A DNA stretch of 64,000 nucleotides from Candidatus Portnoybacteria bacterium RBG_19FT_COMBO_36_7 (GCA_001819495.1 MHMW01000018.1:3322-67321), one strand, 5' to 3'. Positions 8,400-36,120 are shown, numbered from the stretch's first letter. The notes: generated from the letters alone by a model not told the origin. A program made the numbers and translations.

Positions 8400-9599
8400 C
8401 TATTCGTTATTTACGCTTGTGCCAAACACCGAAATATTCAGCCAGACAGGCGGGGTAGTCGTTTCATGGACAAAGTCTATTTCAATATCAATAATGGCAC
8501 TGGGAGTTGAAGTTGCGAAAGGCGTTGTTGCCGGCGAGGTTGTCGCGTTTTCTATCACAGGGTTTTGAACCGGGTCTTGCGTCTCTGGCAAAGAAGCCGC
8601 ATCCACCATCTGCTGGGCGCTTTTTACCATTTCAGTGGCTGTTTTTATAATCGTCAAAGCGCCGGCAAAATCGCCGTTTCTTAAACACTCTAATGCCTGC
8701 TCAATTGCCTTATCGGATTCATCAAGAATAATGGTTGCATTTATCGGCAATTTATCGGAAATTGCCGAATTGCTTACTGTTTCCGAAAGAATATTAGCTA
8801 TTTGTCTGGTTTTCTGGATCTTATCGTCAACTTTAGCCGCGATTTCCGTTTCGCTCATCCCTCCTTCACCCTGCATCTGGACCATCATTTCAAGCGCCCT
8901 TATGCTTGTTTTATCGGCTTCTTCAGTAGCTTCGGCTATTTTATCGGTTAAATTGTTCTTCATATCCGGCGATAGTGCCAATTTTGCCTGACTTAGGCTT
9001 TGTTCGGCTGAAGCAGCACTCTCGTCTATCTTTCTGGCTGCTGCAACTACTTTTTTAGCCTCGGTTTTGCTCAATTTGGGCAATTCGTCTTTTGCGCTTA
9101 AAAGATGGCGCTGCAAGTTATTTACTGCCTCTTCAATTTTGGTCTGTTTTTGTTCCATTGATCCTTCAGTGCTAATAATTTTATTCAGCTCGTCAATCCT
9201 GGCTGAAATCATATCGGTCTGAACCTGAGCTTTGCCTTCGGCAGAAGTCGTGGCAAAAAGTCTTGCTTCTTCCAGCGCGATTTTAACTGGAAAAAGCCTG
9301 TCCCCGGGCAAGCTATTTTTGGCTCCGGCAATAACAGCCAGACTGCTGCTGAACATAAAGCCGAAAATAAGAACAAAAGCCGCTACTGGTTTTAATACGG
9401 GGTGGGGATTTCTGATATAGCACCAAATTGAGACAATTGCCGAAGAAAAATTAAATGCCGGAATTGTTTCTTTTTTGCTATTTTTGGCCATTTCAAGCGT
9501 AATTTTCTCACGGCAAAAAATAACCCAATTTTCATCCGGCTTTATCTTTTTTAATTGATTTAAGCGTTCTATTAGATTGTTTTCGCTTATTTCGCTCAT
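8400..9599 (-). CDS. DUF5667-like membrane-anchored helical protein (candidate anti-sigma factor)
   Basis: SLPGDRLFPVKIALEEARL motif after a TM segment; downstream of an ECF sigma factor. Start moved to ATG 9599 because 9600-9741 is a repeat cassette. Confidence 0.7.
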   Translation of the reverse strand: MSEISENNLIERLNQLKKIKPDENWVIFCREKITLEMAKNSKKETIPAFNFSSAIVSIWCYIRNPHPVLKPVAAFVLIFGFMFSSSLAVIAGAKNSLPGDRLFPVKIALEEARLFATTSAEGKAQVQTDMISARIDELNKIISTEGSMEQKQTKIEEAVNNLQRHLLSAKDELPKLSKTEAKKVVAAARKIDESAASAEQSLSQAKLALSPDMKNNLTDKIAEATEEADKTSIRALEMMVQMQGEGGMSETEIAAKVDDKIQKTRQIANILSETVSNSAISDKLPINATIILDESDKAIEQALECLRNGDFAGALTIIKTATEMVKSAQQMVDAASLPETQDPVQNPVIENATTSPATTPFATSTPSAIIDIEIDFVHETTTPPVWLNISVFGTSVNNE

Positions 9600-9741
9600 C
9601 CAGGTAGTAGAAATTCGACTTGATTTTTTAATTATTGCCAGCCCCGTAGTAGAATTTTGACAAGAACGTAGCTCCAATCCCGTAATGAAAAGTCGAAATT
9701 TCACTACGGGGCCAGGCAGCAGTCGAATTTTCACTACCTGG
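9600..9741. mobile_element. MITE-like cassette (family A) at a start codon, containing a nested cassette
   Basis: Ends ccaggtagtagaaattcgac / gtcgaattttcactacctgg; CAT on both sides (9597-9599, 9742-9744). Confidence 0.8.
9642..9711. mobile_element. Nested 70-bp MITE-like cassette with 4-bp target duplication
   Basis: ccccgtagtagaattttgac...gtcgaaatttcactacgggg flanked by CCAG at 9638-9641 and 9712-9715. Confidence 0.75.
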
Positions 9742-9754
9742 CATTCTAATAAAT

Positions 9755-9782
9755 ATGACGCGAAAACGCCTTTTTTATTACA
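9755..9782 (-). promoter_or_regulatory. Candidate ECF-type promoter
   Basis: Minus strand TGTAAT-16 nt-CGTCAT, between the ECF sigma gene and the DUF5667-like gene. Confidence 0.35.
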
Positions 9783-9888
9783 GTCAAATAGACAAGAAAA
9801 GAAAACGGCGGAGCCGATATCGGCCCTGCCGCCTTAAATATACGATTTTAGCTTCCCCCTCCACACTAAGCTTGATTTGGGGGCAAAA

Positions 9889-10398
9889 TTAAGCCTCTAA
9901 GGCCTCTCTCAGAGCTTTTATAGCTCTTGATAAGGAAGTCCTGACTGTCCCCTCTGATTTACCTAAAATTTGGGCTATTTCCTCTACCTCAAAGTCGTCT
10001 ACATAATACCAGATAATAATCTCCTGATACTCCTCCCTGATAAGACGGAGATATTCCATTATCCGGTCAATTTTTAAATTTTTATCAGTTTTTTCTTCTA
10101 TGCCCGATTCGGCAATGCCCAAATGTTTTTCGGAAACCTCTTCCAAAGTTATCGGCAAATTAGGATTCTTTCGGAAATAATCGGAAATGAGGTTCCGACA
10201 AATTTGGTAAGTCATTGCCGAAAGATTTCCGATAAAATTTCCTTCTTTCAGGTACTGCCAACCTTTTAAGAACGCTTCGGAGGCAAGATCCTGGGCCACT
10301 TCCTGCGAACCAACCCTAAAATAAACATAGCGATATATCTTCGTTATGTTTTCGTCATAAAACTTAAGAAAATTCTGTTCATTTTCGACTAAACTCAT
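9889..10398 (-). CDS. ECF-subfamily RNA polymerase sigma factor
   Basis: AQDLASEAFLKGW (region 2) and EIAQILGKSEGTVRTSLSRA (region 4); 169 aa. Confidence 0.92.
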   Translation of the reverse strand: MSLVENEQNFLKFYDENITKIYRYVYFRVGSQEVAQDLASEAFLKGWQYLKEGNFIGNLSAMTYQICRNLISDYFRKNPNLPITLEEVSEKHLGIAESGIEEKTDKNLKIDRIMEYLRLIREEYQEIIIWYYVDDFEVEEIAQILGKSEGTVRTSLSRAIKALREALEA

Positions 10399-10407
10399 TA
10401 TTATGGG

Positions 10408-11268
10408 CTACTTGCAGTTTTTGGAGATAAACGCCTTAAGGTCATCTTTCAAATCTTGACGGTCAAGAGCATATTTTAGGGTCGCTTTTAAATAATTCAG
10501 CGGATCGCCGGTGGTCAGCCACTCTCCGTCTTCCACTTTTTTAGCATAAAATATATTCCCGCGCTTAACATATGTTTTTATTGCGTCCACGATCCAGAGC
10601 TCATTTCCTTTTCCCAGCGGAGTATCTCTTAAGATATCAATTATTTCCTGGTTCAGGATCATCCGGCCAAAATCGGCATAGCGCGATGGCGCTTCTTTAA
10701 TGCTCGGTTTTTCAATTATATCTTCAATTTCCATAGTTCCCTTTTTAAGCTTTACAATTCCATACCTGACGACATCTTCTTTTGGCACCTCCTGGACGCC
10801 TATTATAGGACAACCATGCTTCTCATAGTCTTTGACCATCTGCTTGGTAAAAGAAACTTTTGACTTGACCAGATCGTCGCCCCAGACAAAAACGAAAGGT
10901 TCGTCATCAACCAGATTGGCGGCGCACAAAACCGGAGTACCGTTGCCGTAAGGACCTTTTTGTCTTATATACACGAAATTGGCCATTTCCGAGATTCTTT
11001 TTACCTGTTGCCAAAGCTTGTCTTTCCCGGCTTTTTTCAGCTCATTGGCCAAGGCCCAGTTGTGATCAAAATGATCCTCAAGGGGCTTTTTATCCCATTT
11101 GGTCACCAAAATTATATCCTCAATCCCGCCCTCAACCAATTCTTCAACAACCAGCTGAATAATCGGCTTGTCCACAATCGGCAGCATCTCTTTAGGCATT
11201 GATTTGGTCGCCGGCAAAAGGCGGGTGCCCGAACCGGCTACCGCCACTACTGCTTTTTTAATTTTCAT
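10408..11268 (-). CDS. galU: UTP--glucose-1-phosphate uridylyltransferase
   Basis: AVVAVAGSGTRLLPATKSMPKEMLPIVDKP signature. Confidence 0.93.
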   Translation of the reverse strand: MKIKKAVVAVAGSGTRLLPATKSMPKEMLPIVDKPIIQLVVEELVEGGIEDIILVTKWDKKPLEDHFDHNWALANELKKAGKDKLWQQVKRISEMANFVYIRQKGPYGNGTPVLCAANLVDDEPFVFVWGDDLVKSKVSFTKQMVKDYEKHGCPIIGVQEVPKEDVVRYGIVKLKKGTMEIEDIIEKPSIKEAPSRYADFGRMILNQEIIDILRDTPLGKGNELWIVDAIKTYVKRGNIFYAKKVEDGEWLTTGDPLNYLKATLKYALDRQDLKDDLKAFISKNCK

Positions 11269-11311
11269 AACTTTTTTTTAATTTCTATTCTAGCTACTGA
11301 AAAATCAATGG

Positions 11312-11935
11312 TTATGCATTTAATAAATACCTGACGCCTCTCCGTCGGCCCACTCTCCTAATAAAGTTTCTGCCCATCAGCACCGCCAAATCATTCCTGA
11401 CCGTTCTATCGCTAACCTTGCCCAAAATATTACGCAGGTCATTTACGGTGGTTTCTTTATTTTTATTGAAATATTCAACGATCTTTTCCTGGCGCAGTTG
11501 TGCTTCACCGATAATAAATCTGATCTCTTTTTCTTTTTCCTCTTTGGGCAAAGATAAGCTTATTTCCGGCGGGGGATTCATGACTGTTTTTTCTCCCCTC
11601 TCGCGGCTTTTTATTGCCCGGCCGGCCAGATCATAGAGAAGCAAAGAATAAGCGGCTATAAGTAAATCAAAGTTTAGCGGCACCAGCCACTTCTGATTTT
11701 TAGCAATTTCCAGATAAATTTTTACTTCTTCTATTTTTAAAATTGTATCACTAATCTTCCCTGTTGCTAAAAAGACCACTATCTTTGATGAGCCCTGCCG
11801 AAGCTGCGAGATAAGCGCTTCGCCAGCCGGAAATAATTTGGTTATCCGATAAATTGCCAGACAAAGTTCAAAAGCCCTCCCTTTGTAACTGTCTAAATTT
11901 TTGCCGCCGTCCTCCGGAAATTCTTGTTCGGCCAT
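11312..11935 (-). CDS. Four-helix-bundle (IVS/bAvd-like) domain fused to a DeoR-type winged HTH
   Basis: AFELCLAIYRITKLFPAGEALISQLR at the N-terminus; VSDRTVRNDLAVL at the C-terminus. Start set at ATG 11935 because the upstream sequence is a repeat cassette. Confidence 0.65.
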   Translation of the reverse strand: MAEQEFPEDGGKNLDSYKGRAFELCLAIYRITKLFPAGEALISQLRQGSSKIVVFLATGKISDTILKIEEVKIYLEIAKNQKWLVPLNFDLLIAAYSLLLYDLAGRAIKSRERGEKTVMNPPPEISLSLPKEEKEKEIRFIIGEAQLRQEKIVEYFNKNKETTVNDLRNILGKVSDRTVRNDLAVLMGRNFIRRVGRRRGVRYLLNA

Positions 11936-11936
11936 A

Positions 11937-12083
11937 CCCGGTATATCAACTTCCAGTGACAAATGCTTTTTGCAAAAACGCTTGTATCGTGGAAGTCGCA
12001 AGCCCAGAAATTTACTTCCTTATAATTGTTTCTGAATTTGTGCTCTTCTTTTAGAAGAATACACCGGAAGTTGTATTACCGGG
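11937..12083. mobile_element. MITE-like cassette (family B) at a start codon
   Basis: 22-bp imperfect terminal IRs cccggtatatcaacttccagtg / caccggaagttgtattaccggg; flanked by CATA and CATG. Confidence 0.65.
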
Positions 12084-12095
12084 CATGTTTAATTC

Positions 12096-12125
12096 ATTCT
12101 ATTTGCCAGAAAGCCAGTCTGTCAA
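12096..12125 (-). promoter_or_regulatory. Sigma70-like promoter
   Basis: TTGACA-18 nt-TAGAAT, 9 nt before the ATG at 12086. Confidence 0.6.
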
Positions 12126-12483
12126 CATTATAACATTATAAGCCCTCCTTAATAAACTCTAAACAAAATTTAACGGAATAATAAAAGATATAAAAATAAA
12201 AAAAAGCGTCTGAAACAAATAGGGGAGTTCCAATATATTTTTTCGTTTTTGTTTTTTTATAATCTTTAAAACACTTTTCCGATTTTATTTATTGCCGCAA
12301 TTCCCTTTTTTTTCTGATATTATTTTATTGTGCGACATAATATTTACAGGAGAACAAAAGAACTCCCCCTTTAGTTTTTTTGACGTTCTAAATAATTTAT
12401 TTGTCGCCAATATTGTACGACATCTCTTTTCTACAGAAATAAAAAAAGCCGGTTAAGGCATCCGGCATTTATGGCCAAAAAGA

Positions 12484-13239
12484 TTATTTTAATAATTGTT
12501 TTATCTCTGAAGATTTTGTTATTTTTGCCAAGCCTGCGCTGTCGGCCCAGTTCAAGCCGGCTATCTCCCCTTTCAGATTGAATATCGGACAGCCGATAAT
12601 TTCTCTGCCCGAAAAACCGATATCAAAAACAGGAGAAATCTGCCTGACAATATCAAAATCAGCAAATTTATTAAAATCTGGCGATTTTACGCCGATTAAA
12701 AAAAGCTGCTCGCCCAGCCTTGGTTCTTTCTCGGCAAAAGGCAAAACCGGCAGATTGTTTTCGTTTATTTTCAAAACGGCAATTCCGGACGCCTCGTCTG
12801 CTTTTTTAATCTCTGCCTCTATCTGTCTGCTGTTATAGACGACCAGAATTTTTTGAGCCGAATCCGGAATCAAATTTTTGGCCGTAACAATCAAACCGTC
12901 GCTGGAAGCGATAAATCCTGTCCCCTGCGCCAAAATTTCCGGCTTCTCAAGAATAATTTTTTTTCCGGCGGTTATTTTTTCAGTTACCTCCGATATTACC
13001 CCGACAACAACACCGCTGCATTTGTCAATCGCGTCTTCCAACGCTTCATTTTCCGTAATCACCACTCTTTCTGTCCGGTTTATAACGGTCGTGCCTTCGC
13101 CGGCCTGCCTGATCCAGTCAACATTTTTCAAAAATCCGATGCCGGCCAGCCAGGGAAAAAGAAATTGAGAACCCAAAATCCCCCCAACCGCCCCTAAAAC
13201 AAAAATAAGACCGAACTTAATTAATTTATCTTTTATCAT
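12484..13239 (-). CDS. Membrane-anchored trypsin-like (HtrA-type) protease homologue, catalytic motifs degenerate
   Basis: GTGFIASSDGLIVTA and PIFNLKGEIAGL resemble HtrA; TNxH and GNSGG are absent. Confidence 0.7.
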   Translation of the reverse strand: MIKDKLIKFGLIFVLGAVGGILGSQFLFPWLAGIGFLKNVDWIRQAGEGTTVINRTERVVITENEALEDAIDKCSGVVVGVISEVTEKITAGKKIILEKPEILAQGTGFIASSDGLIVTAKNLIPDSAQKILVVYNSRQIEAEIKKADEASGIAVLKINENNLPVLPFAEKEPRLGEQLFLIGVKSPDFNKFADFDIVRQISPVFDIGFSGREIIGCPIFNLKGEIAGLNWADSAGLAKITKSSEIKQLLK

Positions 13240-13254
13240 TGTGTCTCCAATTTT

Positions 13255-15891
13255 TTAAACTTTTGAAACCCTAACTGCTTCCTGTGTCTGAATTACAATT
13301 TCGTTATTTTTCTCGTCAAAGACTATCATGCTGCCTTCTTTTATTTTTCCTTCAATTATCTGCTTGGCTGCCTGGTCCAGAATAAGCTGCTGGATTATCC
13401 TTTTTAAAGGCCGGGCCCCGAAATTCGGATCGTATCCCTTGGCCGCCAATAATCTTTTTGCCTCTTTGGTTACTTTTATTTTTATCTTTTTCTCCGCCAG
13501 TCTTCTTTGCACCTGCTCCAGCTGCAGCTCAACTATCATTGCCAGATCCGCCTGGCTCAGCGCGTCAAAAACGATTATTTCGTCAACCCGGTTCAGAAAT
13601 TCCGGCTTGAACTGCTGACGAAGAGATTCCAGAACTTTGTTTTTCATCTGCTGAGCCTCTTTTTCGGGCCGATCGGCAGTAAAACCAAGAATATATTCTT
13701 TGACTATTTCATTGCCGGCGTTTGAAGTCATAATAACAACCGAGTTCTTGAAATTGACATGGCGGCCCTTAGCGTCGGTCAGCCTGCCGTCATCCAGAAT
13801 CTGCAGCAGAATATTGAAAACTTCGGGATGGGCTTTTTCTATTTCGTCAAACAAAACAACGCTGTAAGGCCGGCGGCGGATCGCTTCGGTCAGTTGGCCT
13901 CCTTCTTCAAAACCAATGTATCCGGGAGGAGAGCCGATCATCCGGGCAACCGTGTGTTTCTCCATATATTCGGACATATCCAACCTGACGAGCGCGTTCT
14001 CGTCATTGAACATAAATTCGGCCAGCGCTTTGGCTAATTCGGTTTTGCCCACACCAGTGGGCCCAAGAAATATAAAAGAGCCGATTGGTTTTTTTTCTTC
14101 GGAAATTCCGGCGCGGGCGCGGCGCACGGCGTTGGCCACCGCTTTAATCGCCTGCTCCTGATCAATGATGCGCTCGTGCAATTCATCTTCCATGCGCGAT
14201 AATTTTTCCATTTCTCCTTCGAGCATTTTTTGCACCGGGATGCCCGTCCAGCGCGAGACAACTTTCGCAATATCCTGCTCGCCTATTTCTTCCTTGAGCA
14301 GGGGGTTGCCGCGCTGAATTTCCACTAATTTTTTCTGCAAAGATTTTATCTCTTTCTCAAAATTGGGAACTTTGCCGTAGCGGATCTCGGCCACCTTCTG
14401 CAATTCTGCTTTCCTTTCTGCAATCTCGGCTTCCTGCTTTAAAAAGTCTATCTGTTTTTTTGATTCCCTGATTTTGGCGATAATATCATGCTCGGCCCGC
14501 CACCGCAGCTCCATGCCGCGGCTTTTTTCTTTAAGCTCGCTTAGGTTTTTTTTAACTTTGCGCAGCTGCTGTTGCGTTTCTTTTGATTTTTCGCGCTTGA
14601 GCGCCTGGCCTTCGATTTCCAGTTTCATGATCTGGCGCTTGGTCTGGTCAAGCTCAACAGGCATGCTGTCAATTTCCATTCGCAAAGCCGAGGCCGCTTC
14701 ATCTATCAGGTCGACTGCTTTATCGGGCAAAAATCTGTCTGAAATATAGCGCGCCGAAAAACTGGCCGCTGCGATAATTGCCGCGTCCGTTATGCGCACA
14801 CCGTGATGAATCTCGTATTTTTCCTTGATGCCGCGCAAAATGGCGACCGTGTCCTCTATAGAAGGCTCGGAAACAAAGACCGGCTGGAATCGCCGGGCCA
14901 GCGCCGGATCTTTCTCAATGTATTTTTGATATTCCTTCAGGGTTGTTGCGCCGATAGCATGCAATTCTCCTCTGGCCAAGGCCGGCTTGAGCAGGTTTGA
15001 AGCATCAATCGCTCCCTCGGCTGCTCCGGCACCAACCAAAGTGTGAAGCTCGTCAATAAAGAGAATGAATTTTCCGGCTGAACGGTCTATCTCTTTCAAA
15101 ACCGCCTTTATTCTGTCTTCAAATTCCCCGCGGAATTTTGTTCCGGCTACCAAGCCTCCAAGATCCAAACCGATAAGCTCCCTGTCTTTTAAGCTTTCGG
15201 GCACGTCGCCGGCGACAATGCGCTGGGCCAAACCCTCAACAATCGCTGTCTTTCCGACTCCTGCCTCTCCGATAAGAACCGGATTGTTCTTTGTCCGGCG
15301 CGATAATACCTGCATAACTCTCCTGATTTCTTCATCCCGGCCAATGACCGGATCGAGTTTTTCTTTGCGGGCAAGATCAGTCAGATTTCTGGTATATTTT
15401 TCCAGAACCTGATATTTGCTCTCCGGCTCAATGTCGGTGACGTGCTGGCCGCCTCTCACATCCTCCATCACATTCAAGATCTTCTGCTTGTCAACGCTGA
15501 AAATCTGCAATATTTCCTTGACCTTTGTTGACGTCTCAAAAACAGCCAGAAGCAAATGCTCGCAGCTGATAAATTCATCCTGCAGGTTCTGCGCTTCTTT
15601 GCTGGCCTGATTGATGAGTTTCCCCAGCTCCGGGCTCAAAAATACCTGGCCAAAAGGAATTTCGCCGACCACTTTTGGCAGCTTGGTCATTTCTTTTTCC
15701 AGTTCCGATTCAAGCAAGGCCAAATTGACGCCCAGTCTCTGCAAAATGGAAACAACGATGCTTTCGGCCTGCCAAACAAGAGCCAAGACCAAATGCAAAA
15801 TGTCTATCTGCTGCTGTCCGCGTTCCGAGGCTAGATTATGCGCGTCTTTTAGCGCTTCCTGAGCTTTGATTGTGAATTTATCGATTTGCAA
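13255..15891 (-). CDS. clpB: ATP-dependent chaperone ClpB
   Basis: Two AAA+ modules ([16 protein letters not shown]) and a long coiled-coil M domain; TTG start is uncertain. Confidence 0.95.
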
Positions 15892-15935
15892 GTTCGCTTA
15901 CGCTCAAGTTAAAAATTAAAAGTGACAACTTTGTT

Positions 15936-16007
15936 GTCATCCTGAGGGCGAAGCCCGAAGGATCCTGCTGAATTTCCATAAAGTCCTCCCTTAACGCTCA
16001 GGATGGC
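15936..16007. repeat. REP-like palindromic element embedded in heptamer tracts
   Basis: gtcatcctgagggcgaagcccgaaggatc...cgctcaggatggc; related cores at 4221-4240, 8109-8129, 27879-27899 and 38007-38026. Confidence 0.7.
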
Positions 16008-16072
16008 GCCATGCGCCAGTTTTTAATTTTTAATTGTCGTTTTTATTTTTTATGTCTTACTTTTTAAATTTA

Positions 16073-17293: not shown

Positions 17294-17299
17294 AATTCT

Positions 17300-17707
17300 T
17301 CATTTTTCATTTTTACTTTTTAATTTATTCCTATAGTCTTCTATCGCTTTATGCAAGGCCTGCGCCGCCATGTTTGAACAATGCATCTTAATCGGAGGCA
17401 ATCCGCCCAGTTCCTTAGCCACTGTTTCTCGGTTTAATTCTAAGGCTTCTCTTAAAGTTTTCCCTTTGGCCAATTCTGTAATCATTGAAGAAGTGGCAAT
17501 AGCCGCCGCACAGCCAAAACTTTCAAATTTTATATCATTAATTGTTTCTACGGTTTTTCCTTTTTCATTTTTACTTTTTACTTTTATGTAGAGCGTCATC
17601 CGGTCGCCGCAGACTATATTGCCGATTTTTCCGACTCCATCGGCATCTTTTATAGATCCCATGTTCTTGGGATGCAAAAATTGTTCAAGGACTTTTTTAG
17701 AATACAT
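17300..17707 (-). CDS. iscU: Fe-S cluster scaffold, IscU/NifU N-terminal family
   Basis: CGD, FGCAAAIA and LPPIKMHCS motifs. Confidence 0.9.
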   Translation of the reverse strand: MYSKKVLEQFLHPKNMGSIKDADGVGKIGNIVCGDRMTLYIKVKSKNEKGKTVETINDIKFESFGCAAAIATSSMITELAKGKTLREALELNRETVAKELGGLPPIKMHCSNMAAQALHKAIEDYRNKLKSKNEK

Positions 17708-17708
17708 A

Positions 17709-17849
17709 CCAGGTTAGTAGAAATTCGACTTTAAATTTAACATTGCCTGCTAAAGGTAAAATCTTCAATTATACAATGTGCCAAATCGTGAGTTTCTTTT
17801 TGGTTCATTCCGTTAAACGGAATGAACCTGTCTAATTTTCACTACCTGG
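17709..17849. mobile_element. MITE-like cassette (family A, enlarged) at the iscU start codon
   Basis: ccaggttagtagaaattcgac...aattttcactacctgg flanked by CATA on both sides; internal hairpin ggttcattccgttaaacggaatgaacc. Confidence 0.75.
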
Positions 17850-22213: not shown

Positions 22214-23107
22214 TTAAAATGCCAAAATTGCCAAACCTGCGATTATTAATATTATAGCTAAAATTTTCTGCATAAGAATTCCCCGAGTGATTTTTTCCTG
22301 AATTATTTGAGGGAATTTTTTGGAAAGGAAAATCGTTAAAATCAGCAAAAAAGCGTATTGAATTCCCTGCATGGCATTAACCAAAGAAGCGCTGGCTAGA
22401 AAAATTGCATAATTAACAGCGATAGTCCCAATGCCGGCCATTGCCTTATTGGAAACAAAAAGCATGCTTAATCCTGCCGTGGCCTGCCTGCCGCCGGAAA
22501 AAATCGAACGGCGCAGCCTCGGAAAAATCAGAAAGGTTAATGCTGTTAAAAAAATCCCTATCCGAATCCAAATAAATCCGCTGACAAAATTTTGATTAAT
22601 GAAAACATATTTTGTTAAAACAAGTGAAATGGCGGTCAGCAAAATTGAAAAAACAATAAATTTAAATCTTTTTTGCTGTTTCTCTCTGGGCTCTTTTTTA
22701 AAAGAAATCAGCACTCCGCCAAGAACCAAAAGGAGAAAAGCCGCTATTTGCGCCAAGGCGAGCCTCTCGCCCAAAAATAAAAAAGAAAGTCCCAAAACCA
22801 AAATTGGCGTCAGGCCGCCAAAAGAGGGCAGAACGCGCGAAGCTGAACCGATGTCCAGCGCATGAAAAAGATACAAAAAGCCAAAAAGCGTAAATGCACC
22901 GGTCCCAAGCGCGATTAAAAATTGGGTTGTTCCGGGCCAAACCAAGCCAAAAGGGGCCAAAGCCAAGGCAAAAATGCTCAAAAGCCCGACATAAAAAGTG
23001 TAGACTGCCGGCTTGGTCACCGGCCGCTGGCCAAGCAAAAACTTATCCAACACTCCGACAACAGCTATTAAAAAATATCCGGCAATGGCAAATAAAAACC
23101 AGCTCAT
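22214..23107 (-). CDS. DMT/EamA-family transporter
   Basis: About 10 TM segments in two repeats; FLFLGERL motif. Confidence 0.75.
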   Translation of the reverse strand: MSWFLFAIAGYFLIAVVGVLDKFLLGQRPVTKPAVYTFYVGLLSIFALALAPFGLVWPGTTQFLIALGTGAFTLFGFLYLFHALDIGSASRVLPSFGGLTPILVLGLSFLFLGERLALAQIAAFLLLVLGGVLISFKKEPREKQQKRFKFIVFSILLTAISLVLTKYVFINQNFVSGFIWIRIGIFLTALTFLIFPRLRRSIFSGGRQATAGLSMLFVSNKAMAGIGTIAVNYAIFLASASLVNAMQGIQYAFLLILTIFLSKKFPQIIQEKITRGILMQKILAIILIIAGLAILAF

Positions 23108-24342
23108 AAATTTATTGAATTATTTTTACAGATCTTCGCGTATTCCAAGGCACTGGGCCTAATGCGCCGCTCCATGGTTTTGTAGTTAACTTCAACCAAG
23201 CCGAAGCGCGGCCAGAAACCTTTATCCCATTCAAAATTATCCAAAAGAGACCAATGGAAATATCCCTGTATATTGACGCCGCGTTCCAAAGCTCGCGAAA
23301 CCGCTTTTAAAGTTTCTTCAATAAACCATCTTCTATATTTGTCTTCTTTGTCTGCCATGCCGCTTTCAGTTATATAGACCGGCTTATCGTATCTTTTTAA
23401 GTTCGCCAGAACATTTTCTATTCCTTCCGGGTGCGTGTCCCAGCCCACATCGGAAACAACCTCTTTTTTATTTTTATTTATTCCGTAATCTATTCTGTTG
23501 TGGAAATAAAAATTAAGACCTATAAAATCAAGCTGGTGATGAACCCTTCTCAAATATCTATGATTCCAAAATCTTTCAAAAAGAATCTTCAAAATTGCGT
23601 TGACAACTCCTTCCGAAGATTTAAAATCCGAAAGATTGCATACTCCTCCGACCATTGACAGAGGCGTTATTTTTTTGATGGCCCGGTATGCCCTTTTATG
23701 GGCTTTCATCAATGAACGCATTGAGAAATAAAAATTTAAAATCCCTTTTTTTTGAGGAGTCCATCTTCCGCGATAATATGAATTAAGAGAATAAATTTCC
23801 GGCTCGTTTATAGTCAGCCAATATTTGACATCGCGCCCTAAAACTTCAACCATCTTTTTAACGTATTTTTCAAAATATTTCGGGAAATCCGCATTCCTCA
23901 CCCCGCCTTTTTTTGCCAGCCAAATAGGCAATGTCCAATGCCACAAGGTCACAAAGGGTTCCAGTCCTCTCTCTTTTAACGCTTTTATGACCAGCTGATA
24001 GTGCTCTATTTCTCTTTCGTCAAACTTTCCTTCTTCTGGCTCTATGCGGCTCCATTCAATTGAAAAACGATGAGCGTTCTGGCCAAGCTCTTTGACAATA
24101 TCAAAATCCTGCTCAAAACGTTTGTAATGGCCGCAGGCGTGATCTGAAATATAATTTTTGGGCTCAAACATCTCCGGAAATTTTTCCTGCTGCCATTCTT
24201 GAAATTCCATTCTGGTTTCCTTTGCCAGACGATTGGCATTGGTTTTTTCCCATTCTGTCCAGTCGTTAAAATTCCAGCCCTCAACTTGATGAGCCGAGGT
24301 AGCCGCGCCCCATAAAAACCCTGAGGGAAATTTGTATTCCAT
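23104..24342 (-). CDS. Glycoside hydrolase family 1 (beta-glucosidase)
   Basis: FLWGAATSAHQVEG, RFSIEWSRI, TINEP, ITESG and WSLLDNFEW. Confidence 0.93.
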   Translation of the reverse strand: MEYKFPSGFLWGAATSAHQVEGWNFNDWTEWEKTNANRLAKETRMEFQEWQQEKFPEMFEPKNYISDHACGHYKRFEQDFDIVKELGQNAHRFSIEWSRIEPEEGKFDEREIEHYQLVIKALKERGLEPFVTLWHWTLPIWLAKKGGVRNADFPKYFEKYVKKMVEVLGRDVKYWLTINEPEIYSLNSYYRGRWTPQKKGILNFYFSMRSLMKAHKRAYRAIKKITPLSMVGGVCNLSDFKSSEGVVNAILKILFERFWNHRYLRRVHHQLDFIGLNFYFHNRIDYGINKNKKEVVSDVGWDTHPEGIENVLANLKRYDKPVYITESGMADKEDKYRRWFIEETLKAVSRALERGVNIQGYFHWSLLDNFEWDKGFWPRFGLVEVNYKTMERRIRPSALEYAKICKNNSINL

Positions 24343-24343: not shown

Positions 24344-24410
24344 CCGGGTAGTAGAAATTCGACAATTACTAGTATCGCTGCCGGGCAGCAGTCGAATTTT
24401 CACTACCCGG
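24344..24410. mobile_element. MITE-like cassette (family A, 67 bp) at the GH1 start codon
   Basis: ccgggtagtagaaattcgac...gtcgaattttcactacccgg flanked by CATA (24340-24343, 24411-24414). Confidence 0.85.
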
Positions 24411-27898: not shown

Positions 27899-27969
27899 CT
27901 GCGGGGCTTGGAATCGAACCAAGATTCCCAGATTCAGAGTCTGGTTGCCTACCTTTAGCAGACCCCGCA
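27899..27969 (-). tRNA. tRNA-Gln (CTG)
   Basis: TGCGGGG/CCCCGCA acceptor; CCAGA-CTCTGAA-TCTGG anticodon arm; GGTTCGATTCC T arm; CCA not encoded. Confidence 0.92.
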
Positions 27970-27982
27970 GTAAACCCCGCAA

Positions 27983-28894: not shown

Positions 28895-28927
28895 AAGTTT
28901 TGAATTTTGACATTTGACCTTTGAACT

Positions 28928-29623: not shown

Positions 29624-29626
29624 TTT

Positions 29627-30725: not shown

Positions 30726-30773
30726 TTACTCTACTAATTATATTATGCCTGTCAAAAAAAAACAACAAAAGAG

Positions 30774-30937
30774 AGCCAGCGGTCCCGCCATTGCGGGACG
30801 ACCGGAGTTTATCCCGCACCTTTTTGCTGAGCCGATGGTCGGGATTGAACCGACAACCTATCGCTTACGAAGCGATTGCTCTACCATTGAGCTACATCGG
30901 CATAAAGGTGCAGGGCTGCCGACTGAGCTACGCTGGC
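30774..30937 (-). pseudogene. Split remnant of a second tRNA (Thr-like) surrounding the intact tRNA-Thr
   Basis: 5' piece GCCAGCGTAGCTCAGTCGGCAG (30937-30916); 3' piece AACTCCGGT..CGCTGGCT (30809-30774); acceptor halves are perfectly complementary. Confidence 0.7.
30830..30901 (-). tRNA. tRNA-Thr (CGT)
   Basis: GCCGATG/CATCGGC acceptor; ATCGC-TTCGTAA-GCGAT anticodon arm; GGTTCAATCC T arm. Confidence 0.93.
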
Positions 30938-30982
30938 GATACACTTTTCAACCTATCATAAAACGTACCTCTTGTGAACTAC

Positions 30983-31042
30983 TTGACAAGATTTTTAGAA
31001 CTGATAAACTGACCTTATACCTATACCATAGGTATAGGTATA
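30983..31042 (+). promoter_or_regulatory. Copper operon promoter and probable CsoR operator
   Basis: TTGACA-16 nt-TAAACT, then palindrome TATACCTATACC-ATA-GGTATAGGTATA. Confidence 0.7.
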
Positions 31043-31063
31043 ATAATTTTTAATAAAACTTTT

Positions 31064-31333
31064 ATGAAAGACAAACAAGACGCTTTAGTAAATTTCAAAA
31101 AGGCCCACAGTCATCTGGCCAATCTTATCAAGATGACCGAGCAGGGCGAATACTGCATCAACATTATGCAGCAGAACCTGGCTGTCATCGGGCTTTTGAA
31201 ATCAGCCCATCAGATGCTGATGGAAAATCATTTAAACACCTGCTTCAAAACCGCGATGTCAACAAAGAACGAAAAAAGAAAGCAGGAGATGACGCAGGAA
31301 ATTTTGGGCGTCACAAGACTTTTTAATAAATAA
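31064..31333 (+). CDS. csoR: CsoR/RcnR metal-sensing repressor
   Basis: YCINIMQQ...HLNTC Cys-His-Cys pattern; first gene of the copper operon. Confidence 0.85.
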   Translation: MKDKQDALVNFKKAHSHLANLIKMTEQGEYCINIMQQNLAVIGLLKSAHQMLMENHLNTCFKTAMSTKNEKRKQEMTQEILGVTRLFNK

Positions 31334-31337
31334 AAAA

Positions 31338-32726
31338 ATGGACAATAAAATAAAAGAATTTACTTATGCCGTCCGCGGCATGCACTGCGCCTCCTGCGAA
31401 ATTCTGATAGAGAAAAAACTGCTGGAGCTGCCGCAGATAAAATCGGCCGACGCCTCAAACCCAAGGGGCCGGGTGACCATAGAATACGAAAACCAGAGGC
31501 CTTCTGCCAAAGAACTTTCGGCGATGTTTGAAAAAGAAAACTACGAATTTTTTGAAACATCCCAGAAAAAAGAGGAAAATCCGCCATCAAATAATCTGGC
31601 TAAATCCTTTCTTGTGGCTCTGGTTTTAATCGCCAGCTTCCTGGCGCTCAATAAGCTCGGCCTCTCAAAATTGATTAACGTCAACTCCGCCTCTTCCCTG
31701 CCGACATTCTTTGTCTTCGGCCTGCTGGCGGGTGTATCTTCCTGCGCCGCGCTGGTTGGCGGAATAATTCTTTCTATGTCAAAGCAATGGATGGCGCTTT
31801 ATTCCGCAAATGATTCGCTTCTTGTCAAATCGCGGCCGCACGTCATGTTCAACATCGGCCGCCTATTCTCTTATTTTGTTTTGGGGGGGATGCTCGGCCT
31901 CGTCGGCCAAAAACTCCATCTATCCCTAACTTTTTCATCGGTTCTGGTCATTGCTATCTCTGTCATTATGGTGTTTTTGGCTCTACAGATGATCGGCGTC
32001 AAGTATTTCAAACAGTTCCAGTTCGCTCTGCCAAAATCGCTCACCAGATACATCGCCGACACGTCAAATTTCAAAGGCCGCTGGATGCCGACTTTATTGG
32101 GTGCCTTAACTTTTTTTCTCCCATGCGGATTCACCATCACAGCCCAGGGGCTGGCTCTGCTTTCAGGAAATTTTTTCCAGGGCGGCATGATCATGTTTTT
32201 TTTCGCTCTGGGAACGTTATTTCCCCTGCTTGCTATCGGGCTTTCAAGCGTCAAATTTTCTTCAAGCCATCATATATCAAACCAGTTTTTAAAAGTGGCC
32301 GGGCTGGTCGTCTTATTCTTTGCTGTTTTTAACATCAATTCGCAATTGAATGTTTTTGGCTTCAACGGATTTAGTGATTTGGTTTCTGGCGCCGCGCAAA
32401 AAAATCCAGTCAATCAGCAAAATGATCTGCCGCCGATAGTGGAAGGCAAACAAATCCTTAAAATGAATGCCTCATCTTCCGGATACAGCCCCAGGACCCT
32501 GAAAGTCAGAGTCGGCGTGCCTGTTCGCTGGGAAATCACCGATATTGGAACAAGCGGCTGCACCAACGCAATAATTTCACGAAATTTATTCAGCGGACAA
32601 ATCAATTTGACGCCAGGCCGGACCAGCATTAAAGAATTCACTCCGCAAAAAGTGGGACAATACAGATTTTCCTGCTGGATGGGCATGGTGACAGGCGTCA
32701 TTGAAGTTATCGACAATAATTCATAA
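31338..32726 (+). CDS. HMA + DsbD-like transmembrane + cupredoxin-like domain protein
   Basis: GMHCASC; SSC and LPCG in the TM part; FSCWMGM at the C-terminus. Confidence 0.8.
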
Positions 32727-32740
32727 TTCAGTGCAAAATT

Positions 32741-35017
32741 ATGGCCAATAAAATTATCCTGAAAATTTCTGGCATGCACTGTGCTTCCTGCGCTGCCAAC
32801 ATCGAACGCGCCCTGACAAAAGAAAAAGGTATCGTATCGGCTAATGTCAATTATGCTAACGAAAAAGCTTATCTGGAATTTAATCCGCAACAATCCTCCA
32901 TTGAAAGAATTAAGAAAGTTATTAAAGATACCGGCTACGCGGCAAACGAAGAATCTCGCGATATGACCATAGCCGGCCACCACGACCATCAAAAAGAAGC
33001 ATCCTTGAAAGAAATGACAAGTCTTAAAAAGCGCTTCTTTTATTCGCTCGTTCTGGGCCTGCCGGTTATTTACGCGGTTATGGGCGGACTGGCCGGCCTG
33101 CCTCTGCCTGAATTTTTTGAAAAATACGGCATGCCCATCCAATTTCTGCTTTCTACTGCGGTTATTCTGACCTGTTTTAACATCTGGACTTCGGGATTTA
33201 AAAGCCTTATCAAACTACGGCCAAATATGGATTCTCTGATATTTGTCGGCACGGCGGCCGCTTATTTTTACAGCTCTGCGCTTTTCGCTCAGACACTTTT
33301 TGGTGCAAAAATCGGAATGGAAAATCTCTATTTTGAAAGCGCGATTTTTATTTTAATCTTCATTTCCCTGGGCAAATATCTGGAAGCGATAACAAAAGGA
33401 AGAACATCCGAAGCGATAAAAAAACTGATAGGCCTGGCGCCAAAAGAAGCGACGATTATAAAAAATGGGCAGGAAGCGAGAATTCCGATTGCCGAGGTTC
33501 GCGAAGGCGATATAATTTTGGTGCGGCCCGGTGAAAAAATCCCGGTTGATGGCGTTGTTGTTGAGGGCTACTCGGCCGTTGACGAAAAAACCATTACCGG
33601 CGAAAGCATCCCGGTTGAGAAAAAAGAAGGCTCGCAAGTTATCGGCGCCACCATCAATAAAACCGGCTCATTTCGATTCCGGGCAACAAAAATCGGCAGT
33701 CAAACAATGCTAGCCCAGATAATAAAAATAGTTGAAGAGGCGATGGGTTCAAAAGCATCCATTCAGCTTATGGCCGATAGAGTATCCTTATATTTTGTGC
33801 CTGCGGTTATTACGATAGCCATTTTATCTTCTGCTATCTGGCTTTTTTTTGGATACCAGTTTGCATTTGTGTTAACAATCTTTGTTTCAGTGCTCATCAT
33901 CGCCTGCCCCTGCGCGCTGGGGCTGGCCACGCCGACAGCCATTATGGTCGGCTCGGGCCTGGCAGCGCAGCGCGGCATTTTAATAAAAACTGGAGATGCC
34001 TTAGAAATAGCCCGAAAAGTGAATTTTGTAGTCTTTGACAAAACCGGCACGCTGACCAGCGGCGAGCCGTCAGTAACTGATGTTTTAGGTGAAGGACAGA
34101 ATGAAATTTTACAGCTAGCCGCTTCAATTGAAAAAAAATCAGAGCATCCTCTGGCGCAAGCGATTGTAAAAAAAGCGGAGCAGGATAATATAGCGATAAA
34201 AAATGCCACTGATTTTGAAGCTGTCCCGGGCAAAGGAGTAAAAGCGAAAATTGACGGGCAAGAAATCCTATTTGGGACCCGTAAATTAATGGCTGAAAAT
34301 AATATCAAAATCGATTCTACGGAAAACGATATGATCGCTTTAGAAGATAACGGCAAAACAGTCATGATCCTGGCGGCCGATAGCAAAATTGTCGGCTTGA
34401 TCGCGGTGGCTGATACGCTCAAAGAATATTCTCAAGAAGCGATAGATATTTTGCATAAAATGGGCAAAAAAGTCGCTATGCTAACCGGCGATAATAAACG
34501 CGTCGGCCAGGCAATCGCCAAACAAGTCGGCATAGATTATGTAATTGCAGAAGTTCTACCTCAAAATAAAGCAAAGGTTATTAAAGATTTACAGGCAGGA
34601 AATCAAATTGGAAATTGGAAATTGGAAATTGGAAATTCCCGCCAGGGGCGGGTGGTGGCTATGGTCGGCGACGGCATTAACGACGCGCCGGCTCTCGCCC
34701 AAGCTGACCTTGGCATCGCTTTGGGTTCGGGCACTGATGTGGCCATGGAAACCGGCCAGATAGTTTTGATCAAAGACGACCTCCGCGATGTGGTGACAGC
34801 AATAGACCTGAGCAAATACACTATCAAAAAAATTAAACAGAATCTTTTCTGGGCGTTCATCTATAATGTCGTGGGAATACCGATTGCCGCAGGTATCCTC
34901 TTCCCTTTCACCGGATGGCTCATGAGCCCGACAATTGCAGCCGCTGCCATGGCTTTCTCCTCAGTATCAGTCGTCTCAAATTCGCTTCTGATGCGGACAT
35001 ACAGGCCAAAAATCTAA
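32741..35017 (+). CDS. copA: Cu(I)-translocating P1B ATPase
   Basis: [31 protein letters not shown] and MAFSS. Confidence 0.95.
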
Positions 35018-35023
35018 TCAACC

Positions 35024-35050
35024 AAAAACGCCCCACAAGGGCGTTTTTTT
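35024..35050. terminator. Bidirectional intrinsic terminator
   Basis: aaaaacgccc-cacaa-gggcgttttt between convergent genes. Confidence 0.7.
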
Positions 35051-35068
35051 ATTTGACCTCGGTTCTTC

Positions 35069-35380
35069 CTAAAAGGAATACAGCAATATAAAAGTAATTA
35101 TAGTAACGATGAATAAACAGCCGACGGTGTAGGCAAGCAATGTAATCGCGTCCGATTTTTTGCCGTCCAGATAAAGCAATATCGGCCGACCAAGGATCAG
35201 CGCTCCGACAATTGTGGCCGAAATTACGAATAAAAGCAACAGCGCCACTGGCATCCAGAAACTTTCTGCCTTGCCGAAAAACTTTTCACCGTTAAACATC
35301 AGCCACGCCACGCCCGAAATATAAACGAACGCGGCCAGCGAATTAATGATGCTCCAAGATAATATTTTTGAGTTTTTCAT
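35069..35380 (-). CDS. Small membrane protein (3 TM)
   Basis: Hydrophobic ORF from MKNSKILSW; the longer ORF-track start overlaps tRNA-Gly. Confidence 0.7.
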   Translation of the reverse strand: MKNSKILSWSIINSLAAFVYISGVAWLMFNGEKFFGKAESFWMPVALLLLFVISATIVGALILGRPILLYLDGKKSDAITLLAYTVGCLFIVTIITFILLYSF

Positions 35381-35402
35381 AATTTTATTATTAATGATTA
35401 TG

Positions 35403-35473
35403 AGCGGGATACGGGAATCGGACCCGTCTCTCGACCTTGGGAAGGTCGCATAATACCGATATACTAATCCCGC
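35403..35473 (-). tRNA. tRNA-Gly (CCC)
   Basis: GCGGGAT/ATCCCGC acceptor; CGACC-TTCCCAA-GGTCG anticodon arm; T loop reads TCCGATT. Confidence 0.9.
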
Positions 35474-35503
35474 ACTTCGCCCCACAGACGGGCTCAGTAT
35501 AAA

Positions 35504-35926
35504 CTATCGGAAGAAAAACTTCCACCACTTTGAAAAATTAGATTCCATTTTTTTGACTGCCGAGGCCGGCAAAATATCTTTATTTTCCTCTTTTTGCGGC
35601 TGTGAATTTTGAGTAGCTAACGAATCTTTAAGCGGCTCGATTATCACCACTTCCTCCCCCGGTTTTTTCATATTTAATTTTTCCCTCGCTTCTTTTTCCA
35701 AAAAACTCTGACTGTCCAGATAATCTATCATTTCCGATATCTGCTGGTTAGATCTTTCCGCATTGCCAATCTGGGCTTTCAAATTATCGATTTCTTTGTT
35801 AATTTTATATTTCCTGTAATAGACATTGACCACGCTTAAAACCAGCCAAATAAAACCGAGCAATAGAAAAAACAGCGTTATCCGCGAACTTAATATTTTT
35901 TTTATTTTTGCGCCTTGCTCTGCCAT
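35504..35926 (-). CDS. Septum formation initiator (FtsB/DivIC family)
   Basis: TM, coiled coil and LEKEAREKLNMKKPGEEV motif. Confidence 0.8.
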   Translation of the reverse strand: MAEQGAKIKKILSSRITLFFLLLGFIWLVLSVVNVYYRKYKINKEIDNLKAQIGNAERSNQQISEMIDYLDSQSFLEKEAREKLNMKKPGEEVVIIEPLKDSLATQNSQPQKEENKDILPASAVKKMESNFSKWWKFFFR

Positions 35927-35952
35927 AAAAATATTGATATACTCAAAATATG

Positions 35953-36020
35953 CCAGGTAGTGAAAATTCGACTGCTGCCCGGCAACAAATCCTAAATTAT
36001 GTCGAATTTCTACTACCTGG
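35953..36020. mobile_element. MITE-like cassette (family A, 68 bp) at a start codon
   Basis: ccaggtagtgaaaattcgac...gtcgaatttctactacctgg flanked by TATG (35949-35952, 36021-36024). Confidence 0.85.
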
Positions 36021-36021
36021 T

Positions 36022-36120
36022 ATGAAAAAGGGACAAATTTTTAAGATTGTTTGGACGCTTGTCATTGTTTTAATTGTCTTGAGCATGGTAATTCTTTTAA
36101 TCGCACCAATTTTTTATTAG
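36022..36120 (+). CDS. 32-aa single-TM microprotein
   Basis: MKKGQIFKIVWTLVIVLIVLSMVILLIAPIFY; upstream TGnTATACT; below the ORF-track size cutoff. Confidence 0.55.
   Translation: MKKGQIFKIVWTLVIVLIVLSMVILLIAPIFY

Follow-up and report, generated by a model that had tools for sequence, protein, structure and literature searches.

MITE-like hairpin cassettes at start codons of a Portnoybacteria genome share their ends with a tiny element encoding a GIY-YIG nuclease

The five hairpin cassettes present at gene starts in the window (the whole 64,000-nt stretch of Candidatus Portnoybacteria DNA that was analysed; Table 1) are MITE-like, gene-less copies of tiny mobile elements which form two related families, A and B, and are hosted by ultra-small Patescibacteria. 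They share one anatomy, duplicate their targets, occur as filled and empty alleles, land at two classes of sites, and are followed by a conserved downstream ATG. In the explanation that we favour, with a probability of roughly two in three, an element of 310-350 bp is the source of the cassettes, is moved by the nuclease which it encodes, settles at landmarks of gene expression, and is read as a cistron coupled to the host gene.

Table 1. Cassettes of the window with neighbouring genes and promoter-like sites
Feature	Position	Strand	Remarks
Host gene, weak DUF5667 match	8400..9599	-	Begins at downstream ATG
Family-A short copy (composite), 142 nt	9600..9741	-	Terminal inverted repeats and both ATGs; upstream ATG 9744-9742, downstream ATG 9599-9597; duplication AATG/ATG (upstream/downstream)
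Nested family-A variant, 70 nt, inside 9600 cassette	9642..9711	-	Own 4-bp duplication CTGG
ECF-type promoter-like motif GTAATA-15-CGTC	9755..9781	-	10 nt before upstream ATG; promoter function putative
Host gene, 207 aa, DeoR-like HTH domain	11312..11935	-	
Family-B short copy, 147 nt	11937..12083	-	Duplication CATG/TATG; ATGs: upstream 12086, downstream 11935
Sigma70-type promoter-like site TTGACA-18-TAGAAT	12096..12125	-	9 nt before upstream ATG; 11/12 positions match
Host gene nifU	17300..17707	-	
Family-A short copy, 141 nt, between nifS and nifU	17709..17849	-	Duplication TATG/TATG; no clear -10
Host gene, GH1 glycoside hydrolase	23104..24342	-	
Family-A short copy, 67 nt	24344..24410	-	Duplication TATG/TATG
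TATAAT	24426-24421	-	7 nt before upstream ATG of 24344 cassette
Family-A short copy, 68 nt	35953..36020	+	Duplication TATG/TATG; ATGs 35950 and 36022 in frame, open; TATACT at 35938-35943
Small hydrophobic ORF, 32 aa	36022..36120	+	Divergent from ftsB-like gene

Re-measurement confirmed the coordinates, terminal inverted repeats, and paired ATGs of the original prediction, as well as the ATG-to-ATG distances of 145, 151, 145, 71, and 72 nt, the last of these (35953) being the only one in frame. The four family-A copies do have the same orientation, with the same type of end beside the upstream ATG in all, and the fifth cassette, which had been set apart by its different repeats, belongs to family B. 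The composite type of the 9600 cassette occurs at two further places in the genome, and an ECF sigma gene lies directly upstream of its DUF5667-like host gene. The nested copy inside this cassette was absent from the original prediction. The cassettes form a stem of about 20 bp with one internal mismatch, and for the three that were folded the stem energy was -33 to -64 kcal/mol, with folding z-scores of -5.9 to -7.6. Searching the window with Rfam 15 at the gathering score returned RNase P and three tRNAs only, the cassettes being unmatched, and no Pfam match was obtained for the 32-aa ORF behind the 35953 copy.

Throughout the genome there are 41 paired copies, 31 at ATG, 9 at TTG, and 1 elsewhere; family B has six paired copies. 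Copies are 61-217 nt long with repeats of 20 bp, and their ends at a score of at least 14 are matched 78 times in the genome versus 1-2 times in each of three shuffled genomes. End matches number 0-103 per genome in the family, and 5 of 400 further genomes from the phylum contain the ends. Like MITEs, the copies are short, non-coding, and dispersed in large numbers, with terminal inverted repeats, target-site duplications, and empty alleles. The duplications comprise 4 bp, sometimes 3 bp; T or C precedes the ATG in 92% of targets, and upstream flanks are AT-rich, as at many starts. The imperfect stem has a fixed asymmetry: about 114 of 121 copies carry G.T/A.C, or this pair swapped, at positions 10-11. 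Among 31 copies whose upstream duplication begins with a base other than T, 16 have T as the first base downstream, and among 98 in which it begins with T, 6 have a different first base downstream, a pattern that may fit a donor-carried target tail, decay, or hairpin repair alike. Concerning placement relative to gene starts, 28 of the 31 ATG-flanked copies open at least 66 codons, whereas starts make up a fraction of 0.19-0.34 of all start and intergenic ATGs, the intergenic counts being rough because the gene caller (701 genes, 85% coding) was home-made. Genes intact behind copies include dnaA, rplS, and argS, which are among these 28, and also rpmE, pheS, priA, and rsmH. One copy sits at a 12-codon ATG within a convergent spacer (C28:11586).

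Relatives have empty orthologous alleles with a single ATG at four of the five sites of the window. The 9600 site is empty in G001, G011, and G013, and in G002 it holds a 66-nt copy with an AATG/AATG duplication and no nested insert. The 11937 site is empty in G001, the 17709 site in G001, G002, G003, G011, and G013, and the 24344 site in G001, G002, and G013; for the 35953 site there is only an element-free distant homologue, a similar small ORF at the same place in G013 (alignment judged by eye). The four predicted -10-like boxes are present, and three of them also occur in empty alleles, namely TATAAT of the GH1 gene, 7 nt before the single ATG, TTGACA-18-TAGAAT in G001, and the ECF-like GTAATA-15-CGTC, kept in 5/5 aligned genomes. 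This comparison, from which a spurious family-B match (C30), one wrongly placed site of G001 that is in fact filled, one paralogue, and one remnant (folD-like gene) were left out, gave mostly empty orthologous sites. This genome and G002 have at least 10 occupied starts in common, as against about 1.9 expected by chance, and some copies must therefore be old. Interiors differ or are nested at about half of these sites, which precludes comparing the conservation of repeats and interiors there. Copies genome-wide, empty alleles, and a coding long form bear out the proposal of a non-autonomous element that sits on start codons and leaves the ORF whole.

The full-length form consists, over 310-350 bp, of a 20-bp imperfect inverted repeat, a GIY-YIG gene, and the second repeat, flanked by a 4-bp duplication. 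A search for a long copy enclosing a transposase had been suggested; the long coding form exists, but its sole gene codes for a Slx1-like GIY-YIG nuclease of 84-97 aa, not for a known transposase. Full-length forms are represented by L055 in G002, by 52 distinct ones among 80 metagenome loci, and by 4 of family B in relatives. In this genome, two contigs break off within the 3' end of such a full-length form; their terminal 47 nt are identical, and these copies precede two different genes, one of them pheS. The element is sense to the host gene in 43/43 cases, and the upstream ATG is in frame with the nuclease in 27/38 (family A, where cases are not independent because full-length copies share ancestry) and 4/4 (family B). 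The nuclease matches PF01541 with an E of 5e-16 over 91 aa, and Y6, Y17, G19, R27, H31, and E63 are invariant in 26 aligned proteins. Its nearest solved relatives are UPF0213 proteins and Slx1/HIGLE (PDB 6seh, 7cq2, 7wme, 1zg2), with profile E of 3e-8 to 3e-3 and TM-scores of 0.53-0.68. Each of the two families, A and B, combines its own type of repeat with its own protein clade; in the nuclease tree, built on 91 columns, most forks are unresolved and the bootstrap did not converge, and only small clades are usable. Regarding viral carriage, viral_contigs gave one single-end match, without a partner end.

Two landing classes exist, start codons and the TTG of -35 boxes. In the latter class, 17 of 21 copies abut the -35 hexamer exactly, and TAnnnT follows 16-18 nt on in 8/10 cases here and in 9/11 distinct ones elsewhere (duplicate promoter at L344 left out), as compared with 229/1634 AT-matched intergenic TTGs. 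It is the start codon, and not the transcription start, that the cassettes mark. Their predicted location mostly at transcription starts holds for four of the five window sites, but genome-wide a -10 box at the leaderless spacing of 4-10 nt is found at 13/30 copy sites (131/596 other starts, p=0.012), and there is a trend away from tight operon junctions (5/27 versus 213/584, p=0.065). One clade has TGGA at the 3' ends of genes as its target, and in one subfamily this role falls to the left repeat of other copies, which means that cis or sequence cues also matter. The consensus pause of E. coli has G at -10 and TG at start codons; a pause-site idea was rejected, as G at the matching positions shows no excess (0.12 versus 0.12-0.16 at ordinary starts).

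Very probably, the nuclease is the mobiliser: it would recognise the stem in a single-stranded or extruded element and cut the stem base, the unit would be joined into a staggered 4-nt break, and the host would fill in. DDE transposition typically involves terminal inverted repeats and 4-bp duplications, and the GIY-YIG gene might be cargo in elements moved in trans by a conventional DDE, HUH, or IS110 enzyme. The genome contains one rve (PF00665) fragment of 106 aa, multi-copy IS genes are often absent from assemblies, and a transposase gene could be missing from this 97.6% complete one. Yet the nuclease ORF occupies the whole space between the repeats in the full-length copies examined, repeat type goes with protein clade, PF01609, PF01797, PF13701, PF12762, PF00872, PF13358, and PF02371 have no match in the genome, and the 3.3 kb scanned around the rve fragment hold no convincing family-A or -B end, all of which makes mobilisation in trans quite improbable. 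One X1 contig runs from 9744 back to 9600, a single letter intervening; it is not counted as a circle because a tandem pair, as seen for elements in L205, L206, L225, and L266, fits equally well. The nuclease-moved element probably chooses its sites by landmarks of gene expression, the likeliest being DNA that is unwound or bent at the position of RNA polymerase, and in addition prefers an AT-rich flank together with YATG or CAAG. Active targeting is favoured over selection, though not proven. If insertion instead occurred at any AT-rich YATG/CAAG-like site, selection would keep only rebuilt start codons or whole -35 boxes. The AT-rich flanks and the base before the ATG do resemble many starts, the copy in the convergent spacer suits this view, and the strictest null built on selection alone, under which convergent spacers are the only harmless sites and AT-rich YATG is preferred, is not rejected (P 0.17-0.76) once AT content and first base are matched. 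We nevertheless consider insertion without active targeting unlikely, as comparison of 184 matched non-start sites, 83 of which lie >60 nt from any start, with 288 matched starts gives P 5e-6 to 3e-4, and a null drawn from sites >60 nt from any start gives P 0.004 (<=1/31) or 0.06 (<=3/31). Moreover, selection leaves the exact contact with the -35 hexamer unexplained, and it is not obvious that a strong stem would be safe at the AUG of an essential gene.

At a start codon, a full-length element would add a cistron whose nuclease is translated from host signals and the upstream ATG and, stopping about 20 nt before the duplicated ATG, would couple the host gene translationally. Behind short copies, opening the 12 nt that precede the AUG costs a median of 13.5 versus 6.1 kcal/mol, a strong lock that ought to prevent normal initiation; the stem ends at the AUG, and the stretch from AUG to +15 appears about as open as at an ordinary start (median 5.7 in copies versus 4.2 kcal/mol). 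The gene may well be read by initiation beside the closed, looped-out stem, a route to which we give about an even chance, and the upstream AUG, where present, would help via the entering ribosome. T4 gene 25/38 offers a precedent for a looped-out leader hairpin, on which a literature search found nothing relevant. The main alternative, somewhat unlikely in our opinion, is that the stem is cut on the RNA by RNase III, as for Correia elements, or is removed, freeing the downstream AUG. The genome has an RNase III gene, the stem length and single mismatch agree with such cutting, and RNase III cleavage of Correia-containing mRNA is reported in two reviews (PMC10969869, PMC2229807); on the other hand, none of three folds shows a bulge-helix-bulge shape, and part of the right arm would presumably stay paired unless the fragments separate. 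An intron with bulge-helix-bulge ends was rejected on the same folds, and DNA contigs of four runs contain no joint skipping a whole cassette among the joints listed. The AUG-to-AUG bypass of the original prediction, in which leaderless transcription starts are targeted and ribosomes jump from the upstream AUG to its duplicate, has become very improbable. The leaderless look of the four window sites, the twofold excess of -10 boxes at 4-10 nt, and the trend away from operon-internal starts speak for it, but such a box is missing at 17/30 sites, the upstream ATG was lost 19 times among 129 copies (rpmE and rplS here included, composite rows L102 and L140 left out) versus once for the downstream one (to GTG), and short-copy ATG spacings are spread 30/17/24 over the three frames, with 4/71 open in frame. 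Programmed translational bypassing (T4 gene 60, byps) relies on conserved matching take-off and landing codons, in contrast to the frequent loss seen here. Least probable of all is a domesticated, riboswitch-like regulatory hairpin of the host instead of a selfish element: the starts shared with G002 would suit it, whereas mostly empty orthologous sites, host genes without common function, differing interiors at shared sites, the lack of an Rfam match, and the rarity of the ends in the phylum argue against it.

We know of no insertion-sequence family that moves by a GIY-YIG nuclease, nor of one that targets the start codon itself. Among the open-access papers listed in the literature searches, none describes a transposon family that lands at start codons or -35 boxes in this way, and PMC11893778, the supplements of which could list Patescibacteria homologues, is the only one that bears on the system. 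Taken as a whole, the proposal that a bare Slx1-like GIY-YIG protein is a new kind of transposase, with expression-guided targets, a coupled cistron, and initiation beside a closed 20-bp stem, is tentative and falls slightly short of even odds; if true, its 310-bp units would be among the smallest autonomous transposons. Should the proposed steps hold, they would enlarge the range of transposase chemistries, would provide a candidate tool of very small size for insertion at gene starts that leaves genes unbroken, and would allow a direct test of translation start in bacteria that hardly use Shine-Dalgarno pairing. As the element has only about 320 bp, the main claims are testable in laboratory strains.

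Slx1 cuts branched DNA, a shape that an extruded stem would share, and Slx1/HIGLE and UPF0213 proteins are closest in sequence and fold; unlike them, the element protein is a bare 91-aa domain within a mobile unit, and its activity is putative. IS200/IS605 elements make no target duplication, unlike those described here, which duplicate their target and lack a HUH/Y1 domain, as does the genome. Tiny enzymes and imperfect asymmetric stems are nevertheless common to them, to REP/RAYT, and to our elements, and their enzyme is thought to act on single-stranded hairpins (PMC11893778, main text).

Correia/NEMIS MITEs of Neisseria are likewise short and non-coding, with terminal inverted repeats and target duplications, and are often located just upstream of genes, co-transcribed, stem-forming, and invertible (PMC10969869, PMC2229807). 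In contrast, the cognate full-length element here encodes a GIY-YIG protein and the duplication is the start codon itself; "start codon" has no hit in either review, nor "GIY" in the 2024 one. Unlike the usual MITE, the cassettes share their ends with GIY-YIG-only elements and not with a known IS of the DDE type. ISLre2, TnGBS, and ISKra4, which employ a Mutator-type DDE transposase, insert at a fixed position 15-17 bp upstream of the -35 box of sigma-A promoters and leave these unbroken (Guerillot et al. 2014, PMC3942029). Here, unlike in ISLre2/ISKra4 (p-MULT), the duplication takes in the TTG of the -35 box, insertion is chiefly at the start codon, their PF00872 is unmatched in the genome, and the full-length element has room only for the GIY-YIG gene. 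The Ssn nucleases with their NTS/SRM hairpin repeats (Chenal et al. 2025, PMC11893778) come near in layout, and the main text remarks on an IS-like arrangement and proposes descent from a mobile element without testing it; Patescibacteria, CPR, target site, and start codon are not mentioned there. Both systems have a small single-domain GIY-YIG gene (about 90-100 aa) with repeats on both sides, which also occur alone in many copies. Hallmarks of Ssn are further a best CDD hit to cd10448 and site-specific cutting of ssDNA close to the repeat. The SRM pattern is nonetheless present in 0/52 full-length ends and 0/41 copies here, and among 23 GIY-YIGs compared the element protein has its lowest BLAST score with the Ssn-like one of the genome (a label given by reading), being closer to other small GIY-YIGs of the genome. 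Where Ssn, according to that text, has two separate short hairpins, the elements described here have one long terminal inverted repeat and a target duplication.

The feature is real, and the five cassettes of the window, which precede a DUF5667 gene, an HTH gene, nifU, a GH1 gene and a 32-aa small ORF, are best explained as gene-less derivatives of a nuclease-encoding mobile element. To this model, including its mobilization, targeting and expression steps, we assign a probability of about 0.68. Positions, ends, paired ATGs and ATG-to-ATG distances of all five cassettes are confirmed as originally predicted. The ends of the cassettes, which belong to two related inverted-repeat families, A and B, occur far above chance expectation, with 78 matches of score at least 14 in the 762-kb source genome vs. 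1–2 per shuffle in three shuffles. Three cassettes fold with −32.7, −41.3, and −64.1 kcal/mol (z −5.9 to −7.6). The first cassette contains a nested 70-nt copy with a 4-bp duplication of its own, and the fifth lies in the likely promoter region of a divergent ftsB-like gene (PF04977), since it starts 27 nt from the ATG of that gene. The two ATGs of the fifth cassette are in frame, and a product extended to the upstream one would start with MPGSENST.

Curation yields 41 paired outer copies in the genome, of which 35 belong to family A and 6 to family B. At their downstream end, an ATG is situated within 2 nt in 31 copies, a TTG in nine, and neither in one. Most of the ATG-flanked copies (28 of 31) open at least 66 codons, and the remaining three open 50 codons (32 on the other strand), 32 codons (the small ORF of the window), and 12 codons. 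Genes behind paired copies include dnaA, rpmE, rplS, priA, rsmH, and argS with intact profile matches, and pheS, equally intact, follows a single-ended copy. Of 15 other genomes of the taxonomic family, 11 contain family-A ends, with up to 103 matches, and the ends also occur in 5 of 400 genomes sampled across the phylum. Named records sharing the ends come mostly from Patescibacteria, which agrees with the small size of the source genome. Among them, an ATG is present in 61 of 72 paired rows (80 of at least 119 loci).

Empty alleles with a single ATG exist in relatives at four window sites, as the original prediction had anticipated. They are found for the DUF5667 gene in G001, G011, and G013, for the HTH gene in G001, for nifU in five of five relatives, and for the GH1 gene in G001, G002, and G013, with G003 likewise lacking the element; the small ORF has an element-free homolog in G013 (read by eye). 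In a comparison over some 742 kb of G001, overlaps included, and 230 kb of G002, with mis-assigned sites corrected, all 15 sites of the source genome with a G001 ortholog are empty in G001, and 23 element sites of G002 are empty in the source genome. The source genome and G002 share at least 10 occupied starts vs. about 1.9 expected. About half of these shared sites have related interiors and about half have different interiors or a swapped end type. This pattern suggests that the insertions are old and that copies have exchanged interiors, or that re-insertion has occurred.

A 322-bp copy in G002 consists of repeat, a 91-aa GIY-YIG ORF, and repeat, flanked by duplicated TATG. Among 80 metagenome loci for the GIY-YIG protein, 52 distinct ones possess both repeats. 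Of these full-length copies, 43 are located at a start codon, always with the nuclease in sense to the host gene. The upstream ATG shares the reading frame of the nuclease in 27 of 38, and in most cases the nuclease ORF stops where the right repeat begins. The two end types have changed places around the still sense-oriented nuclease gene in 10 of the 43, possibly by inversion of the interior. Family-B full-length forms are in frame in four of four cases, and their nucleases, 56–59% identical to that of family A, form a separate clade. Two contigs of the source genome break off within a full-length family-A copy, in its 3′ part, each before a different gene. The long copy enclosing a transposase that had been suggested exists as a coding form, but its gene is for a GIY-YIG protein and not for a known transposase. 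Searches for seven transposase families in the genome gave no match, and the 3.3 kb scanned at the single rve fragment contain no convincing family-A or -B end. Residues which we take to be catalytic, by roles known from I-TevI, are retained in the element protein; among proteins of solved structure, UPF0213 proteins and Slx1/HIGLE are the closest to it. We infer that this nuclease mobilizes the elements.

Start codons are over-represented among the targets, as the 28 of 31 gene-opening copies far exceed the share of starts among start-plus-intergenic ATGs (596 of 3080, 0.19; 0.34 with AT-rich flanks). Transcription starts had been proposed as the predominant site, and a −10 box 4–10 nt upstream is indeed enriched (13 of 30 copies vs. 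131 of 596 other starts, p = 0.012). However, the box is present in a minority only and 5 of 27 copies occupy tight operon junctions. What the copies have in common is the start codon rather than the transcription start. Copies of the TTG class mark −35 boxes: TAnnnT follows 16–18 nt downstream in 8 of 10 sites here (nine paired copies and one single end) and in 9 of 11 distinct ones elsewhere; 14% of AT-matched intergenic TTGs show this spacing. Selection alone might produce such a distribution if AT-rich YATG is preferred and only insertions into convergent spacers are harmless. With rough gene calls, this null is not rejected (P 0.17–0.76), whereas P drops to 0.004–0.06 once all sites more than 60 nt from a start count as harmless. 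Mainly because of the −35 class, active targeting of start codons and −35 boxes seems probable to us.

The downstream ATG is the conserved start, since the upstream ATG is lost in 19 of 129 pooled copies and the downstream one is altered once, to GTG. ATG spacings of short copies are distributed almost randomly over the frames (30/17/24), and an open in-frame connection exists in only 4 of 71. Both figures speak against fusion and against AUG-to-AUG bypassing. The original prediction is right in part: a start-codon element with empty alleles stands, the transcription start as a rule does not, and the bypass is not supported. For 28 copies vs. 150 ordinary starts, the computed median cost of opening the 12 nt before the AUG is 13.5 kcal/mol with the stem vs. 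6.1, and from the AUG to +15 it is near normal (5.7 vs. 4.2 kcal/mol). Ordinary starts of the genome have A/U-rich leaders; their base profile contains no Shine-Dalgarno signal, and the anti-SD is intact. In a simple reading, full-length copies would couple initiation at the host ATG to the nuclease stop. For short copies, we favor initiation beside a looped-out stem, which may be aided by coupling from the upstream AUG wherever it survives. Cleavage of the stem RNA by RNase III, whose gene is present, is another possibility.

Some copies show peculiarities of their own (see table). The decayed one comprises about 13 codons, and G002 retains the right repeat at its site. The copy in CCATGG has an ATG and ORF on both sides, likewise in G002. 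A few copies (L075, L084, L119, L134, and L147) either have TATA as their duplication at −10-like boxes or lie in GGAG-like stretches ahead of a start, and in the former the right repeat provides the TG of an extended −10. Many different resident copies carry the 71-nt subfamily at the same AAAA of their left repeat, a pattern suggestive of homing-like spread or of conversion between copies.

Other small GIY-YIG genes are each flanked by a duplicated tRNA-like 5′ part on one side and an intact-looking tRNA gene on the other (identities by eye); tRNA 5′ regions thus seem to be insertion sites of related cassettes. A nuclease clade with support of 98/89 (L247, L248, L249, and L252, with short copies in L222-L265) targets TGGA within the final codons of a conserved, presumably dockerin-like gene end; its left repeat provides a new stop codon and tandem arrays are formed. 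The family with CCCCGTTAGA ends comprises a GIY-YIG gene of its own as well as short copies, some of which adjoin tRNA-like genes.

Locations of cassettes and related features in the window and on source-genome contigs (C)
Feature	Sequence	Position	ATG-to-ATG (nt)	Other loci
First cassette	window	9600-9741	145	
Second cassette	window	11937-12083	151	
Third cassette	window	17709-17849	145	
Fourth cassette	window	24344-24410	71	
Fifth cassette	window	35953-36020	72	
Interval to ftsB-like ATG	window	35926-35953		
Promoter with copies at −35 box and next start codon	C21	78509-78754		
Same; start codon of rplS	C21	58674-58904		
Decayed copy, in-frame extension before folD-like gene (label by eye)	C16	22046		
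Copy within palindromic CCATGG	C11	11946-12081		L287
Separate short palindrome in right repeat, identical position	C12	18807		
Same	C22	8704		
Same	C28	99788		
71-nt subfamily	C25	12357-12427		L050, L051, L060, L279, L280
Small GIY-YIG gene at tRNA	C10	51-260		
Same	C28	5027-5239		
Same	C29	12379-12588		
Same	C21	10364-10573		
Third inverted-repeat family, CCCCGTTAGA ends	C23	8214-8486		
Same	C13	3655-3757		
Same	C27	near 6458		
GIY-YIG gene, longer C-terminus, GTCAT-led hairpin flanks	C2	5711-5935		

A search of open papers listed no description of a GIY-YIG start-codon element. The anatomy, combining terminal repeats, target duplication, a GIY-YIG-only gene, and landing at start codons and −35 boxes, seems to have no described counterpart. 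Short copies fit the definition of MITEs, save that no known transposase accompanies them. Among described systems, the nearest is Ssn/NTS (PMC11893778), whose SRM pattern occurs in 0 of 52 full-length ends and 0 of 41 copies here. The C2 gene looks to us like an Ssn member, although the SRM pattern has no match at this locus. ISLre2-type elements, which employ a Mutator DDE enzyme, insert 15–17 bp upstream of −35 boxes and offer a precedent for landing relative to promoters (PMC3942029).
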